Source of the DNA: Candidatus Heimdallarchaeota archaeon
GTDB taxonomy: Archaea > Asgardarchaeota > Heimdallarchaeia > Heimdallarchaeales > Heimdallarchaeaceae
Assembly: GCA_030603365.1 (NCBI GenBank)
Contig: JAUVXV010000001.1
Coordinates: 256,001-320,000 of the forward strand
DNA length: 64,000 nt
Reading direction: 5' to 3'
Positions 52,755 through 62,311 of this stretch are shown piece after piece. Numbering within the stretch: position 1 is the first letter of the stretch; every line of letters starts with the position of its first letter. The notes under the pieces are model-generated. The model was not told the origin of the DNA. It did no database searches and was given only the letters and a program-made list of their open reading frames with translations. The translations under genes and the position numbers were made by a program.

Positions 52755-53093
52755 TTATTTTCCCATAAGCTTATCTTGTAGTTCCTTTACTGAAGCAACT
52801 AGTTTCTTTTCTCTATTTGTTAATGATGTGATTTTAACTTCATTCTTTTCTTGTTGTTCTGCAAGAAGTTTCTTTACATCTTCAACCTTAGTCTGGAATA
52901 GTAGTCTTCCTGCAGACCGATAGACTGCAGTAGAAGGATCCATATCCTTGGTTTCCTTTAGTGCAATTTCAATATCACGTTTTTCTAATTCCAACTGCTG
53001 AAGATTCATTCGAATTGCTTCTAGTTGTTGAACAAGTTGATTAAAACGTTGAATATCTTCTTGTTGTTCTGGAGTTAATTGTTGTGTTGCCAT
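52755..53093 (-). CDS. pfdB: Prefoldin beta subunit
   Basis: Coiled coil - VYRSAGRLLF hairpin - coiled coil. Confidence 0.92.
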   Translation of the reverse strand: MATQQLTPEQQEDIQRFNQLVQQLEAIRMNLQQLELEKRDIEIALKETKDMDPSTAVYRSAGRLLFQTKVEDVKKLLAEQQEKNEVKITSLTNREKKLVASVKELQDKLMGK

Positions 53094-53228
53094 GTATGTT
53101 TCCTCTTGGCTTATTGTTAATTTATGCTTGAGTGATAATCAAATAAATGTTTTGATGTTAAAGAATCAATGCTTGAAGGTAAAAAGATAAAGAAAAAAAT
53201 AAGAAAAAGAAAGTGAAGAAATCTTTGG

Positions 53229-54365
53229 TTAAATACAGCGGTATACTGAAGTTGGTCCAACTTCTCTATATTCTTTGCGGGTAACCCACAATTTTGCGAA
53301 AGTCTTAAGCGAACTTAAGATACTACCACCTATCCACACTGAATATCTTCTTTCTGGGGGAGCAATGATTTTAACTTCCATTGTCTCTGGGACAAGTTCA
53401 GTTAGCTCTTTGTGTAAACGTTCCTTAAGACCTGGGAACATTGTTGAACCACCGGAAAGTACAATATTTGCGTAGAGATCTCTTCTTAAATCGACGTCAC
53501 AGTTTTGGATGGATCTATAAATTAATTCATCTAATGGGTTTTCTTCAGAACCAATTGCACCTGGATTGAACATTAATTCAGGAGCCATGAAACGTTCTGC
53601 ACCAATTGTGAGTGTTTCACCATCAGGTAAAGTATAAGTCTTTTCCATTCCAGAAACTTTTTCTGCTAGTTTTAGTTCTTTTTCAGGATCTAATGCTACG
53701 TAACAAAGACGTTCTTTGATGTCTCGGACGATTTCTCTCTCAGCACTGCTTGAGAGTGAGTATCCTCTTTGACGTAGAAGTCTGCGGAGATAGTCAGTTA
53801 CATCACGACCACCAATATCTGATCTGTGAATTGCGTGACTAATAGCGAATCCTTCGTATACTGGCACAATGTGGGTAACTCCGTCTCCAGAGTCTACTAC
53901 TATACCAGTTGTACGACCAGAAGCGTAAAGTGATAAAATAGCCTGCATTGAGATATACATTGCAGGAACATTGAATGTATCAAACATCAACTCTGCCATT
54001 TTCTCTTTATTCTGATTCTTGTTTAAGGGTGGTTCTGTTAAAAGAACTGGATGTTCATTAGGATTAACTCTTAAGTCGTTGTAAAAAGTATAATGCCAAA
54101 TCCTTTCCATTGCATCCCAATCTTGAACCTGTCCATGTTCGACAGGGTAGACAAGTTTCAAAACACCACGAAGGTTTATTGCTTCCTCGCCTATGTAATA
54201 TTCTCTGACGTAATGCTCAACATCAGTCATAATGATCTGATATTTTGGATAACCAATAATTGTTGGGAAAACGCTTCTTGGTTGATCTTCTCCTGCAAAA
54301 CCATTTTTTGTGAAACCAGTACCATTGTCTATAACTAGCGGTTTATTCTGAATCATCTCTTCCAT
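53229..54365 (-). CDS. Asgard actin (Lokiactin-type, eukaryote-like)
   Basis: [60 protein letters not shown] and [15 protein letters not shown] motifs. Confidence 0.97.
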
Positions 54366-54462
54366 AGTTATCACTTTTACATGTTTTTTTTGAAGCCAAA
54401 TTTAGTTATGGTCTTATAGATTCATAACCTTCTCGTATTAAATAAATGTTATGATAGTATAA

Positions 54463-54595: not shown

Positions 54596-55588
54596 TTAGA
54601 AACTACCATAATAGATTAGATTGTTTCGTATTTCTTCTTCAGAAAAACCTGCATTAATACCTACAGTTATCCTAATCAGATCCATAGTTTCTGCAAGCTT
54701 TAATTCAAAAAATCCTATAAGAGCATCGGATTGAAAAACGGTCCCATAACGGAAGGTTTTTCTCCAGTATTTTAATAAATATCTTTCAACTGCAAATTCC
54801 ATGTCATGAAGAGGAACATCCTTTAAACCTATGTATTGTGAAAAAATTGTCTTATAAGGAGAATAATTATAGATTTCTAGTACTTCTTGAATACTCTTAG
54901 CTTTCAACCCCTTAGCAATGAAAGCGTTTGGTAAGATATAGCGATATGCAGGGATTTCCAAGGCTAGACATCGGCATAGTGCTAATATGTTTCTCATATT
55001 AACATATGTTTCATAACGCTTAGAGACTTTTGGGAGAATACTGTAAATATATTGATCAATAGCAGATTCAAGAGGAGTGAATCTATTGGTTGCTTTGAAT
55101 TCTTCAAGAGCCTTTTTTAAATCCATTTGGAAGGATTTTTCGTTTTGCATGGATATAATTTCTTCAATTGGCATATTGATCAGACGTGAATAATAATCTA
55201 AAGAATAATCTGCAACTGGAACTAGTCGTGCTATAATTTCTTCTTGCTTCATTCCTTTATGCTTTCCTTGGAGAATAATCCGAAGATTTTCTGCATTATA
55301 CCTCTCACTAAAACGTCTAATCTTCTTCTTTACAGATGTGTTGGATTGTTTGTAGAATTTTACCAAAATTTCAGCAAAAGAGTTTTTAAAATTTCTAGCA
55401 ACATCTGACAATTGAGTTTCAAAATTAAGACTCCCAATCACACTATCATAGGGAGTTTGTGTAAATGCAGCACGTAACTCTTTAAGATTCCTTGATGATA
55501 AAAGCAAACTTAATTGAGACTTTGTTAGAAAGTTTCCAATAATCCCGTGAGCCCGTCCTAGTAAATAGCTGATGTCACCAAATGCCAT
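54596..55588 (-). CDS. atpC: A/V-type ATPase subunit C (homolog of eukaryotic V0 subunit d)
   Basis: Y...RA.G....L N-terminus, YNAENLRIIL.GK and E..DLIRI..GI. Directly downstream of subunit I. Confidence 0.8.
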   Translation of the reverse strand: MAFGDISYLLGRAHGIIGNFLTKSQLSLLLSSRNLKELRAAFTQTPYDSVIGSLNFETQLSDVARNFKNSFAEILVKFYKQSNTSVKKKIRRFSERYNAENLRIILQGKHKGMKQEEIIARLVPVADYSLDYYSRLINMPIEEIISMQNEKSFQMDLKKALEEFKATNRFTPLESAIDQYIYSILPKVSKRYETYVNMRNILALCRCLALEIPAYRYILPNAFIAKGLKAKSIQEVLEIYNYSPYKTIFSQYIGLKDVPLHDMEFAVERYLLKYWRKTFRYGTVFQSDALIGFFELKLAETMDLIRITVGINAGFSEEEIRNNLIYYGSF

Positions 55589-55589
55589 G

Positions 55590-58500
55590 TTAACTACCCT
55601 TTTCCGTCACATAATTTATGAACTTGAGCTGTTCTGTTATGGGAAGATACTCTTTTCCATCTCCAGTATAGAATTTAGAAAACCATTCAACCCAATGAAG
55701 ACGAAGGGTATTCAAGAAAGAAAGAAGTCCTTCTAAGGGTAAAATGATAAATATCGCCATTACTATTCCAACAACCCACCAAACCCATGAAACACCTAAA
55801 GCAGATACATAATGCCCATGTATCAAACCTGAATAATCTGCAAGATGCCCTAGATGGCCTACATCCAAAGACAATCCTGAAAATGTTGAGAATACTGCCA
55901 TAAGATCTACCCCTGTTAATGTAAAGGGTAATCCACTTAATATGGCATGTACGAGTAATAAAGCCATAATTCGGCTGAAGGATAAGGTATTGGAAATCAA
56001 TGCTATGATGTGATCAATTGCATCCATTATTCCATCAGATTTTGCGTGCATATATTCTAGTACAAATAAAATAGGTGTCACTCCAAGGAGATAAATAGTC
56101 CACGTTGGCATCATTGGCAAAGTGAAATGAAATACTTCAGATGTAACATCCTTTGCGATTATATTGTAAAGCATTGCAAAAATTCCAACATAAACTACGG
56201 ATAGTGATAGAGGGGCACCCCAAGATGCAAATCCGTGACCATATCGTATGTTCTGATATACCTTTAACCAAATACCCAATTGAATCATTAGAAAACCAAT
56301 AGTTAGCGCTAATACCAAAAATAGTTTGGTTTCCTCAAGAGGATTGATGAGTGGTAACCAGTTAATCCCTGCAGCATGGTACAATTCCGCAAGAAAATGT
56401 TCATCTCCTAATAATGAACCAAATAAGAACCCGAAAATCGTCGCTGCAAGTCCGCAGAAAAACAGAAGTTCGGCTCCTGCATAGAGATATCCTGTCATAG
56501 ATTCATCTGGTTGAATTTTCTTTCTTTTCTTATTAAAAACAAAGAAGGTAGCAACTAAAGAAAGAAGAATACCATGACCAACATCAGCAAACATGATTCC
56601 AAAAAGCAGTGGGAAAGTAAATCTGATAATTGAATAAGGATCAACTTCTTTAGGACTGGGTTGACCAATACCTCCAACAATACCTCTTAATGCTCCAAAG
56701 ACTTTTCCACTTTTAGTTATAGATGGATTAACAAGAGGTACTTCTGGATTGACAGATACATCTAATTCAAATGATAAAGAATCTTTCTCTTTTTCAATCA
56801 GTTTCAATTTTTGTTTAGAAATCCAACCCCAAAATACAATATTATTCTCTGAGATTTGACATTTTTCAATTGTTGAAAGCCTGTGAAGTTCATTGGAAAT
56901 AAGTTCATTAGTAGCAAGTAATTTGTCTACTGATTCTACTTTGAGTTTTTCTAATTCTGCATCTTTCTTTTCCAATTCCTTCTCTGTTTCTTTCAAAACA
57001 TCTTTCAATGAAACTTTGCGGTCTACAACAGTTATATCTGTTTCAATTGGTTGAAATGAGTATTCGTTTAATACCCTTGAAATTGCTTTGTCATATTCTT
57101 TTAGAGAAAGTACTAAAATATTTATTTGGTTTGAGTTTGAGTCTGAAGATTCAGCATCCCAGAAAACCAAATTTCCATCAGAAACTTCATTCAAGAAGAA
57201 TTTTACAGCTTTGTAATGATTTTTTGGTATAGAACCCAAATGTGTGACAGTTTGAAAACCACTCTGTAAAAGAACTGCATCGATTCCTTTTTCTTTTAGT
57301 CCTTCTTCAAATGGTAAAGAGAGTTCAATTTGATCATGTTTTCTTCGTAATTCATGATATTCTTCTGAAAATTTGAGTGTTTTTTCTTCATATTCTCTAA
57401 AGAAATTCTCAATAAAAGCTTTAGAATGACTATACTCATCTGAGATTTGGTATTTGTCAGTTTTTTTTTCCTTTTTCTCTTCAGGTTTTATAATGTCAAT
57501 TAATTTTGAGACTCTTGTTTGATATTGTGTAAGTTCTACTTGTAGATTCTTTGCCTTATCAAGAGAATTATCATCGAGGGAACCAATCTTAACAGGATGT
57601 ATACTATTAAGTGAATGAATATAAGAGATTAATTTCCTAGTATTTTCCTCTTTACTCTCTAGTTTAATAAATACTGCTTTTTTTGCAAACAGAAATCCTT
57701 CTCCTCCACCAGCATGAGGAGGATGAGGAATATGTTTACTAGTTTCTTTTTCGACTAAATCAAATGTTTTTATAGTGAAAATTTCTTGTTCCACATCTCT
57801 TTCTTTCTTGTGAGATAGTGGAACATCTTCAAGGATTCTGATATTTGCTTCAAATTCAAGATTTTTCAGATTATCATTAAATTTAGCAAAATCTTTCGAT
57901 TTTACCCATCCCCATATTGTGAAATTTTTAGAATCTGTACGTCCTTTTTCTTCTTTGGTAAGGATGGCATGAGTTTCAGTAATAATAGTAAGTTTATGTC
58001 GCAATTCATCATTTACCTTAGAGGATAAACTCTCGAAGTCTGCCTCAAATCGATCAATGTCGCCACTTACTTCAGAATGAAGTTTGGTTATTTTGGTGGT
58101 TTTACGAATTTCTTCAATAGATTTCAAAGTACCAAAATCGAATTTTGTTTCATCAAAATAATTATCTTTGAGTATCTCATAAACGCGATCTTTATACTCC
58201 TCTAAAGAGATTATAATCGCAACTTTTTTTTCTATGTCTTCTGTTAATGAACTCCAGAAGAACAATCTCCCTGCTGTAATCTCATGCAAATAGAAGACAA
58301 TGAATTCTTCATATGAACTTGGTATCTCTCCTAAAGCTGTAAATGTGCCTGCACTTGAAGAGAGTAAATCAATAGACAACTCTTCTTTCTCTATTTTATT
58401 TTGGAACAATGTTAGAACTGAAAGAATTCTTTCTTCTTTTTTTAGTTTCTTCAAGTCATTGAAATTTGTTGTCATTGATTCTTCGTGTTTTTCAAGAAAA

Positions 58501-58787
58501 GATTTCAAATCTTGACTTACTGTATCAGGATTTTGAATCTGAACTTTTTCTTCCTCCTTCAATGAGGGAAGTTCTTCTAATGGTATATTTAGAATAGAAC
58601 TCAATTGTATCAATCTTGAACCACAATCTTCCAAATCTTCCTTGAATGACTGAATACGTGCTTGTTCTTTAGGACTTTGAGGATCTACGATTATCTGTTC
58701 GTACACTTCAAGGTCAGATATGTGTGCTAGGAGTTCATTCGTATGTTTGACTGGTGTCTGAACTTTTACTAGTTTGAACTTTGCCAT
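55590..58787 (-). CDS. atpI: A/V-type ATPase subunit I (a) with tandemly duplicated N-terminal cytoplasmic domain
   Basis: EVDP, FGIMFADVGHG, SNTLSFSRIMAL and LRLHWVEWFSKFY.GDG motifs. Two aNT copies (aa ~1-324 and ~367-685). Confidence 0.92.
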   Translation of the reverse strand: MAKFKLVKVQTPVKHTNELLAHISDLEVYEQIIVDPQSPKEQARIQSFKEDLEDCGSRLIQLSSILNIPLEELPSLKEEEKVQIQNPDTVSQDLKSFLEKHEESMTTNFNDLKKLKKEERILSVLTLFQNKIEKEELSIDLLSSSAGTFTALGEIPSSYEEFIVFYLHEITAGRLFFWSSLTEDIEKKVAIIISLEEYKDRVYEILKDNYFDETKFDFGTLKSIEEIRKTTKITKLHSEVSGDIDRFEADFESLSSKVNDELRHKLTIITETHAILTKEEKGRTDSKNFTIWGWVKSKDFAKFNDNLKNLEFEANIRILEDVPLSHKKERDVEQEIFTIKTFDLVEKETSKHIPHPPHAGGGEGFLFAKKAVFIKLESKEENTRKLISYIHSLNSIHPVKIGSLDDNSLDKAKNLQVELTQYQTRVSKLIDIIKPEEKKEKKTDKYQISDEYSHSKAFIENFFREYEEKTLKFSEEYHELRRKHDQIELSLPFEEGLKEKGIDAVLLQSGFQTVTHLGSIPKNHYKAVKFFLNEVSDGNLVFWDAESSDSNSNQINILVLSLKEYDKAISRVLNEYSFQPIETDITVVDRKVSLKDVLKETEKELEKKDAELEKLKVESVDKLLATNELISNELHRLSTIEKCQISENNIVFWGWISKQKLKLIEKEKDSLSFELDVSVNPEVPLVNPSITKSGKVFGALRGIVGGIGQPSPKEVDPYSIIRFTFPLLFGIMFADVGHGILLSLVATFFVFNKKRKKIQPDESMTGYLYAGAELLFFCGLAATIFGFLFGSLLGDEHFLAELYHAAGINWLPLINPLEETKLFLVLALTIGFLMIQLGIWLKVYQNIRYGHGFASWGAPLSLSVVYVGIFAMLYNIIAKDVTSEVFHFTLPMMPTWTIYLLGVTPILFVLEYMHAKSDGIMDAIDHIIALISNTLSFSRIMALLLVHAILSGLPFTLTGVDLMAVFSTFSGLSLDVGHLGHLADYSGLIHGHYVSALGVSWVWWVVGIVMAIFIILPLEGLLSFLNTLRLHWVEWFSKFYTGDGKEYLPITEQLKFINYVTEKGS

Positions 58788-61044: not shown

Positions 61045-61902
61045 ATGGAAATACAACTGATAGGAAAACAAGCTTCATTAGACTTTGAAGTTAGTGTTGA
61101 TTCTGCAACAGAGAAGTTTTTCCTCATGGATAGTCTATTAGATGAGCTTAATTTATCTCCTTTACAAAAATGTAAAAACCTGATTTCAATTAATCTCTGT
61201 TCAAATAATTTCTCTGAAATAAATCTTACACCATTGAGTAAGTGCAGGAAACTAAAACATATAGATCTTAGTAATAACAATCTTATCAGAATAAATCTTG
61301 AACCAATGGCAAAATGTAAACATATAGAATCAATTAATCTTCAAAATAATCTTTTAACAGAAGTTGATCTAGCTTCTTTAGAGTCTAATAAGAAACTTAA
61401 ATCAATAAATCTAGATTACAATTTAATACAAAATCTTAACCTCTCTTCTGATATTCAATGGTCTAACATGGAAGAATTACGTCTTTATAGTAATGATCTA
61501 CAAAAAATTGATTTAAAACCTCTTGAAAACTGTAGAAAAATAAGAGAGATAGATTTGGGAGATAATCAACTTTCTAAAATAAATCTTAAACCACTGATGA
61601 ATTATGATAAAATAGAATCAATCTCTTTAGAAAGAAATAAACTAAAAAAAATTGATCTAAGTAAAGTGGAAAACAAGCTTAAGAATTACGTATTATGTAC
61701 TGATCCAGATGTAAAGATAAAGGGTCTTGATGTTAAAACTGAAAAGAAAAAAGCTGAGATAGTTTATTCAAAGGGTGTTTATTATAGCGATGAACAAGAA
61801 AGTAGTCTTGAACAATTTTTCCAAAATGAAAAGGAAGAAAAAAGAATCAAAAGAGATAACATCTTAGCGGAAATAAGAAAAATTGAAAATGGTCCTGTGT
61901 AA
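61045..61902 (+). CDS. Leucine-rich repeat protein
   Basis: About 7-8 repeats of 24 aa, e.g. SEINLTPLSKCRKLKHIDLSNNNL. Confidence 0.9.
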   Translation: MEIQLIGKQASLDFEVSVDSATEKFFLMDSLLDELNLSPLQKCKNLISINLCSNNFSEINLTPLSKCRKLKHIDLSNNNLIRINLEPMAKCKHIESINLQNNLLTEVDLASLESNKKLKSINLDYNLIQNLNLSSDIQWSNMEELRLYSNDLQKIDLKPLENCRKIREIDLGDNQLSKINLKPLMNYDKIESISLERNKLKKIDLSKVENKLKNYVLCTDPDVKIKGLDVKTEKKKAEIVYSKGVYYSDEQESSLEQFFQNEKEEKRIKRDNILAEIRKIENGPV

Positions 61903-61924: not shown

Positions 61925-62311
61925 CTAAAAGCTACTTAAAACTTCTGTTGTTTCAGGTACATATTTTTTAATTACTTGCATTGCTAATCCTACATTATGC
62001 AAATCCCTACTTGCACCGATTAGGATGTAATCTCCTGCACTAGCAAGAATTGTGAAACCTTCCTCTCCTCTTATCAAAACTTGTTCAAGATTTCCGTGAG
62101 CAAGATTATTTGTTACCATTCTTCCTGTGGACAAAATTGCTGATGAAACTGCACTTAGAAGGTCAGGATCTGTACCTTTCTCTGAAAAAAATGCTACTTT
62201 AATTCCCTCTTGATTTACAACAGCTAAAGCTTCTAAATCACAACCAAGTGATATTTGTTTCAAAATTCTGACCAATTGTTTTTTTTGTCCTGGTGATAAA
62301 TCTATAGACAT
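61925..62311 (-). CDS. Roadblock/LC7 (MglB-like) protein
   Basis: AVVNQEG..., LSAVSSAIL..G, G.LEQVLIRGEEG and N.GL motifs. Confidence 0.88.
   Translation of the reverse strand: MSIDLSPGQKKQLVRILKQISLGCDLEALAVVNQEGIKVAFFSEKGTDPDLLSAVSSAILSTGRMVTNNLAHGNLEQVLIRGEEGFTILASAGDYILIGASRDLHNVGLAMQVIKKYVPETTEVLSSF

Follow-up and report, generated by a model that had tools for sequence, protein, structure and literature searches.

The window analysed here, the whole 64,000-nucleotide stretch of Heimdallarchaeaceae DNA, carries a gene for subunit I (a) of an A/V-type rotary ATPase in which the N-terminal domain of subunit a (aNT) is present twice in tandem. The gene occupies 55590–58787 as a single open reading frame (ORF) of 1065 codons. 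A preliminary description of this DNA had reported the uninterrupted 1065-aa ORF and left out its strand, which is minus. The Asgard origin is reflected in the source names of the homologues (Heimdallarchaeota or Heimdallarchaeaceae) and in a nearby actin gene. The gene and its parts, with the partner gene that follows it, are listed below; model confidence is given as the predicted local distance difference test (pLDDT) and the predicted template modelling score (pTM).

55590–58787, minus strand: complete gene for A/V-ATPase subunit I (a), tandem aNT domains included, 1065 aa and a stop codon (open ORF; PF01496 at 129 bits; 38 homologue clusters of 1036–1076 aa)
57813–58787, minus strand: first aNT copy, hereafter copy 1 (AlphaFold (AF2) pLDDT 82.6, pTM 0.74; VIA Z 19.1 to the Vph1 aNT; own clade at 100/100)
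57690–57812, minus strand: linker, residues 326–366, predicted disordered, with the motif IPH-x-x-H-x-G...GGEGF (pLDDT <50 at 328–369; motif kept in 24 homologues)
56718–57689, minus strand: second aNT copy, hereafter copy 2, residues 367–690, the conservative membrane-proximal copy (same secondary-structure order as copy 1; stem branch 0.43 vs 1.00)
55590–56717, minus strand: connector and membrane (proton-channel) domain, residues 691–1065, plus stop (C-terminal part of PF01496; predicted helices 718–1041; best Protein Data Bank (PDB) sequence matches to eukaryotic subunit a)
55971–55973, minus strand: codon of Arg939, the invariant proton-path arginine (invariant in 24 homologues; aligned with the rat a1 Arg)
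54596–55588, minus strand: subunit C/d gene (AC39 family), 330 aa, the downstream partner, 1 nt from subunit I (PF01992 at 104 bits)

By sequence, fold and channel motifs, the protein belongs to the subunit I/a family. It matches PF01496 (V_ATPase_I) at 129.1 bits, against a curated cut-off of 30.7. The match covers residues 384–792 and the C terminus, and in a search of the whole genome two stretches of the ORF exceed the cut-off. The N-terminal architecture typical of the family, a proximal lobe, a coiled coil and a distal lobe, occurs twice over, and the two aNT copies are followed by one intact membrane domain that carries the essential proton-path arginine. Arg939 is invariant in 24 homologues, and its motif ISNTLSFSRIMALLLVHA aligns with the arginine of rat a1 ISNTASYLRLWALSLAHA (S-Y-L-R-L-W-A-L motif). 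In the same alignment with rat subunit a1, the membrane domain ends in a strikingly eukaryote-like L-R-L-H-W-V-E...K-F-Y-x-G motif. A His/Gly-rich loop of ~40 residues (window 55800–55915, minus; residues ~958–995) lies between the last two long membrane helices; it is variable in the family, predicted disordered, and falls in the gap between two stretches aligned to rat a1.

Comparison of the two N-terminal copies shows that the whole domain was duplicated. In BLASTP of residues 1–360 against 361–700, residues 6–324 align with 373–685 at 20% identity over 322 positions (E 2e-15), and this alignment includes the motif pairs LLSS/LLQS, IIISLEEY/ILVLSLKEY, FTIWGWV/IVFWGWI and EDVPL/PEVPL. Profiles built from 24 full-length homologues, each cut into copy 1 and copy 2, align in hhalign with a probability of 99.9% (E 3.9e-36, 316 columns). 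The two N-terminal copies that the preliminary description had aligned by eye are thus borne out by both methods, and the BLASTP alignment contains every motif pair that it quoted. Its His/Pro/Gly linker followed by a single membrane domain is also recovered, as the linker core KHIPHPPHAGGGEG at residues 352–365 and one PF01496 membrane part. This core motif is conserved across the family, and the full linker motif, I-P-H-x-x-H-x-G...G-G-E-G-F, in 24 homologues. The protein is longer than typical subunit I, as had been stated; its usual relatives have 615–738 aa. We are nearly certain that the doubled aNT is a real, lineage-specific duplication.

In the AF2 model of copy 1 (pLDDT 82.6, pTM 0.74), both termini contribute to the proximal alpha/beta lobe; the other parts are a long antiparallel coiled coil and a distal alpha/beta lobe. 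For this model, Foldseek ranks aNT domains first, from mammalian, yeast and Thermus enzymes (E ~1e-12, template modelling (TM) scores 0.5–0.64), and the same families rank first in a structure search independent of Foldseek. In VIA alignments, copy 1 matches the yeast Vph1 aNT over 314 residues at 4.0 Å (Z 19.1, second alignment pass), with Thermus subunit I (6r0z_N) at Z 16.2 and with Meiothermus ruber I-NT (3rrk) at Z 10.7. In the full-length AF2 model, copies 1 and 2 share the order of their secondary-structure elements; the mean pLDDT of this model is 65, the membrane domain and linker are poor, and the orientation of the copies cannot be read from it. At the sequence level, copy 1 retains the core motifs common to both copies (distal lobe, T-x-T-x-x-G; proximal lobe, W-G-W and V-P-L), and it has further invariant motifs that are absent from copy 2, for example P36-Q37-x-P39-x-x-Q42-x-x-I45-Q46. 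Searched against PDB sequences, the copy 1 profile finds nothing significant and no subunit C, and the copy 2 profile finds at best yeast Stv1 (E 0.076). Pfam searches with either copy alone give chance-level matches only.

We searched 400 genomes of the Asgard phylum with the copy 1 profile, 30 of them other members of Heimdallarchaeaceae and 370 from elsewhere. Adjacent copies 1 and 2 are found in 28 of the 30 family genomes, which span four of the five genera and include two single-contig assemblies. The doubled form occurs in none of the 370 genomes outside the family (0/370), where the profile matches single-aNT proteins of 684–865 aa or nothing. The duplication is confined to one lineage, the first of three points that the preliminary description had named together as speaking against a connection to Vma5. 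In protein collections, we found 38 homologue clusters of the doubled form (1036–1076 aa), from sources named Heimdallarchaeota or Heimdallarchaeaceae. An exhaustive profile search of 1.84 billion representatives returned 28 proteins that are doubled forms, fragments or ordinary subunit I, and no sound free-standing copy 1. Two short matches to copy 1 (P0027 and P0029) were considered as free-standing copies and rejected; they lie on contigs of 1.2x and 2.3x coverage, and one is overlapped by a gene call on the opposite strand. An orthologue labelled Hodarchaeales has a single aNT (709 aa). Among sequencing runs, no RNA run is listed as containing this sequence, and DNA runs share at most 0.12 of its words.

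A maximum-likelihood tree of the aNT domains groups copy 1 (12 rows, support 100/100) and copy 2 (13 rows, 98/94) as sister clades (100/99) and nests them jointly among single-aNT proteins of the same order; the duplication thus happened once, at the root of the family. The stem of copy 1 measures 1.00 substitutions per site and that of copy 2 0.43, while crown depths within the family are 1.27 and 1.09, so that copy 1 has since evolved only ~1.2 times as fast as copy 2. Single-aNT orthologues from sister families fit the copy 2 profile better than the copy 1 profile (for example, 96.6 vs 49.6 bits). By these measures, copy 2 evidently stayed near the ancestral single domain and copy 1 diverged about twice as far just after the duplication. 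Mean column identity is 61% for copy 1 and 66% for copy 2, and 36 columns of copy 1 are invariant. The stem and crown lengths are consistent with copy 1 having changed function early and having been under purifying selection since.

Three assemblies depart from the full-length arrangement at the following loci.

L036:1519–3924: copy 1 deleted
L102:560–800: gene split in the linker
L103:110–1300: copy 1 interrupted by a stop

The deleted form (P0030) is a protein of 801 aa on a 14x-coverage contig, with the d gene downstream, in which only a remnant of the copy 1 end and the linker remains. It nests within the copy 2 clade, indicating a secondary deletion. In the split form (L102, a metagenome contig of 3.6x coverage), the linker contains an in-frame TAA that ends a copy 1 ORF; a second ORF, of 711 aa and covering copy 2 and the membrane domain, starts four codons past the TAA. 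This split form would give a free copy 1 protein, if real. In the third case (G021), the reading frame of copy 1 is broken by a TAA near residue 103. All the forms that we examined retain an intact copy 2 and channel. Copy 1 is thus an accessory element, usually retained and sometimes lost.

The genome (3.65 Mb, 17 contigs, 33% GC, 89% complete) encodes two rotary ATPase sets, both complete. Set 1 forms one compact cluster (contig 13, 253218–262460) with A-B-D-Usp-E-I-K on one strand and d, F and G adjacent. Its subunit I is ordinary (684 aa, best score to Enterococcus NtpI), and its subunit B (B1) scores best with the Thermus and Enterococcus enzymes. The cluster includes an inserted universal-stress-protein gene (Usp) and a double-hairpin c subunit (163 aa), and its B and I subunits look bacterial in type. 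Set 2, which holds the doubled subunit I, is dispersed over at least six loci. B2-A2, G2-F2 and D2 lie at three near but separate places on contig 1 (52998–65742); the long subunit I and d2, 1 nt downstream, lie inside the window; E2 stands alone on contig 14 (183601–184275); and the c subunit gene lies on contig 1 (324239–324541, minus), ~4.2 kb past the end of the window and beside an ESCRT-III/Vps4 cluster. Such scattering is unusually operon-free for a prokaryotic ATPase. The set 2 c subunit has a single hairpin and 100 aa, with a hydrophobic N-terminal extension of ~35 residues. The E2 ORF (L040:301–975, minus) has 224 aa; its start is probably the 15th codon (Met), where most family orthologues begin, giving ~210 aa. 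The I-d gene pair recurs in relatives with doubled, single and copy-1-deleted forms.

Subunit B2 scores best with the A-type B subunit of M. mazei (610 bits), then with yeast V-type B (578 bits). Among PDB sequences, copy 2 with the membrane domain scores 81 bits to human a4, 45 bits to Enterococcus and 33 bits to Thermus. From these B2 and subunit I scores, we infer that the doubled protein belongs to an archaeal, presumably native, ATPase set. A single-aNT orthologue from a sister family scores 76 bits against eukaryotic subunit a, about equal to the doubled protein, and so the doubled form has no special affinity to eukaryotes.

In A/V-ATPases, each lobe of the single aNT anchors one of the two E-G stalks, and in eukaryotic V-ATPases three E-G stalks are held by aNT, subunit C and subunit H (PMC6131620). 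It has been reported that A- and F-type ATPases lack a homologue of subunit C (PMC6131620). The gene encodes the membrane stator subunit (I/a) of the presumably native, gene-dispersed A-type rotary ATPase of this Heimdallarchaeaceae archaeon, with an aNT that was duplicated in tandem once, in the family ancestor. In the model that we favour with moderate confidence, copy 1 serves as an accessory arm that would lengthen the collar around the central stalk, carried on a flexible linker of ~45 residues. The doubled aNT supplies four lobes and two coiled-coil spacers, the parts list of eukaryotic aNT plus C (the eukaryotic collar also includes H). Most plausibly, the copy 1 arm gives a stalk one more place to anchor, holds an existing stalk at a second point, or serves regulators as a platform. 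Because the ~45-residue linker joins the proximal lobe of copy 1 to that of copy 2, copy 1 could sit on either side of copy 2. That copy 1 is functional seems very probable. That it binds E-G is suggested by analogy with other aNT domains, and we put it somewhat short of an even chance; an enzyme with three stalks is rather unlikely.

Several points weigh against the collar-arm model. The mutual placement of the copies is not confidently predicted (full-length pTM 0.35, linker pLDDT <50). Copy 1 is deleted (P0030), split (L102) or interrupted (G021) in three assemblies, and so it is not needed everywhere. In one of the family's genera (G014, 89% complete), searches for the long subunit I, E2 and G2 gave no match. 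Set 2 has one E gene and one G gene only, which neither favours nor excludes a third stalk. A complex prediction of copy 1 (1–330) with E2 (1–110) and G2, using family alignments, scored 0.00 and gives no verdict either way.

The alternative that fares best holds that copy 1 is functional and anchors no stalk, acting instead as an assembly regulator, as a tether between two ATPase complexes, or in contact with membrane lipids or cytoskeletal proteins. Eukaryotic aNT binds lipids and regulators. The early burst of copy 1 (stem 1.00 vs 0.43) followed by constraint would be expected of such a role, as would its invariant motifs missing in copy 2, P36-Q37-x-P39-x-x-Q42-x-x-I45-Q46 among them, and the loss of copy 1 in some assemblies while the enzyme core is intact. 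However, neither lobe of copy 1 has lost its core motifs, the aNT fold is complete, and no candidate partner was identified. We regard this alternative as unlikely, though a serious contender.

A bolder version of the collar-arm model proposes an independently evolved, eukaryote-like closed collar with a third E-G stalk, in which copy 1 would be a built-in equivalent of subunit C. It is in our judgement quite unlikely.

A decaying, functionless relic of a neutral duplication would explain why copy 1 is faster than copy 2 and is deleted, split or stop-interrupted in three assemblies. A relic would not be expected to remain full-length and open in four of the five genera, down to ~40% identity, or to have 36 invariant columns, a confidently predicted fold and a crown rate only ~1.2 times that of copy 2. 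We consider this explanation very unlikely.

The preliminary description had proposed the protein as a candidate precursor of Vma5. In its full form, this proposal makes the doubled aNT the ancestral state, with Vma5 arising by fission of copy 1 and a third stalk older than eukaryotes. There is kinship of fold between aNT and subunit C, and the copy 1 model matches the subunit C chains, including yeast Vma5 (1u7l), at Foldseek E values of 1e-7 to 1e-5. In addition, the gene is part of the ATPase set whose subunit I has its best score with eukaryotic subunit a, and the linker split in L102, into a copy 1 ORF and a copy 2-membrane ORF, indicates that fission is mechanically easy. However, the structural check that had been suggested, a Foldseek search with the copy 1 model, gives TM scores of 0.5–0.64 for aNT chains and 0.19–0.30 for subunit C chains; for 1u7l, the E value is 1.1e-7 but the TM score is 0.19 and the root-mean-square deviation 17 Å. 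No subunit C chain is among the 50 VIA matches listed, which we do not count as evidence. V-ATPase_C (PF03223) is absent from the Pfam matches listed for the whole protein (E up to 0.01) and for copy 1 alone (E up to 10). A search of the genome with PF03223 and PF03224 gave no match, but the controls matched nowhere and the search is uninformative.

The distribution and the trees also stand against this descent. The doubled form is absent from the 370 other Asgard genomes, the Hodarchaeales-labelled orthologue has a single aNT, and copy 1 is sister to copy 2 (100/99) within the single-aNT proteins of its own order; grouping of the two copies is the second of the three points that the preliminary description had named against its proposal, and Vma5 was included in no tree. 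The eukaryotic subunit was placed with four sequences of subunit a, in an alignment of copy 2 and the membrane domain. Thirty Asgard sequences form one clade (support 99), within which the doubled forms make up a clade of their own (support 100); eukaryotic a forms a long-stemmed clade outside the Asgard one. A tree constrained to unite eukaryotes with the doubled forms is worse by 44.2 log-likelihood units (approximately unbiased (AU) test, p 0.0075), from a quick search with a long eukaryotic branch and for a group that came from the preliminary hypothesis but was named after the tree had been seen. The profiles of copies 1 and 2 give eukaryotic aNT at most 7 bits, too little to be of use, and it was hence left out of the aNT-only tree. 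Neither sister grouping nor the AU result supports a common descent with eukaryotic collar subunits that would exclude ordinary archaeal aNT. Subunit C is, moreover, a free-standing soluble protein, and copy 1 is fused to subunit I in 38 clusters. We therefore rejected membership in the subunit C family, given the missing sequence signal, the fusion, the apparently poor superposition on Vma5 and an aNT duplication at the level of one family. The doubled aNT is at most a parallel to eukaryotic subunit C, not its ancestor, and we judge the ancestral scenario highly improbable.

Finally, the idea that the long ORF is an assembly or binning artefact fusing two subunit I genes can be dismissed, since the copies are only 20% identical and the same architecture recurs in 28 independently assembled genomes, two of them single-contig, and in many metagenome contigs, with no evidence found in its support; the preliminary description was right to see an old duplication, doubled in 28 of 30 other family genomes, rather than an assembly repeat.

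Other genes surround the I-d pair. Downstream of it on the same strand come genes for actin (PF00022, 452 bits) and prefoldin beta (window 52755–54374, minus). A Roadblock/LC7 gene (window 61925–62311, minus) lies 3 kb upstream of subunit I, and on a related metagenome contig a Roadblock/LC7 gene directly follows the I-d pair (L102:3867–4253), which may point to a recurrent neighbourhood. On the plus strand, at window 61045–61902, a 285-aa ORF shows leucine-rich-repeat-like periodicity (L-x-x-L-x-L-x-x-N), judged from its translation only, and overlaps a weak ORF on the opposite strand.

A literature search found no description of a doubled aNT domain. The protein is of interest chiefly for rotary-ATPase structural biology, as a natural case of collar expansion by aNT duplication in close relatives of the eukaryotic host lineage, in an ATPase set with a subunit I that gives its highest score to eukaryotic subunit a. 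Natural controls come from the family itself, in the single-aNT sisters, the copy-1-deleted form and the split form. Whether four aNT lobes recruit a third stalk bears on how stalk number is set, and on whether the similarity in fold of C and aNT reflects the same kind of event. If a third stalk does dock on copy 1, aNT duplication would be a ready route to it and, together with the linker-stop variant, would offer a living model of an origin of Vma5 by duplication and fission, though as a different event. We know of no established origin of subunit C, and the duplication provides no evidence on that of Vma5; because it is young and lineage-specific, a claim on eukaryogenesis fails.

Like prokaryotic subunit I (Thermus thermophilus; Meiothermus ruber I-NT, 3RRK; PF01496), the Heimdallarchaeaceae protein belongs to the same family, shows the aNT fold (Z 16.2 to 6r0z_N), has a single proton-channel domain at the C terminus that carries the essential Arg, and is encoded beside subunit C/d. 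Unlike it, the protein has two tandem aNTs and is ~370 residues longer, and the set 2 genes are spread over at least six loci instead of one operon. Eukaryotic subunit a (Vph1/Stv1, a1–a4) gives the best PDB sequence matches for copy 2 and the membrane domain (human a4, 81 bits) and the best structural matches for copy 1 (Z 17–19), and shares the C-terminal LRLHWVE...KFY-G-G motif; in contrast to the doubled protein, it has a single aNT, and it branches outside the Asgard clade. Vma5 (1U7L; PF03223) differs from copy 1 in being a free soluble protein, where copy 1 is fused to subunit I, appears to superpose poorly on Vma5 (TM 0.19–0.30) and has no sequence signal that we found. The two are alike in having two alpha/beta lobes and a coiled coil, a relation of fold that is detectable for copy 1 (Foldseek E 1e-7). 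Vma5 is a collar subunit on which the third E-G stalk is anchored (PMC6131620), and the four lobes of the doubled aNT equal those of aNT and C together.

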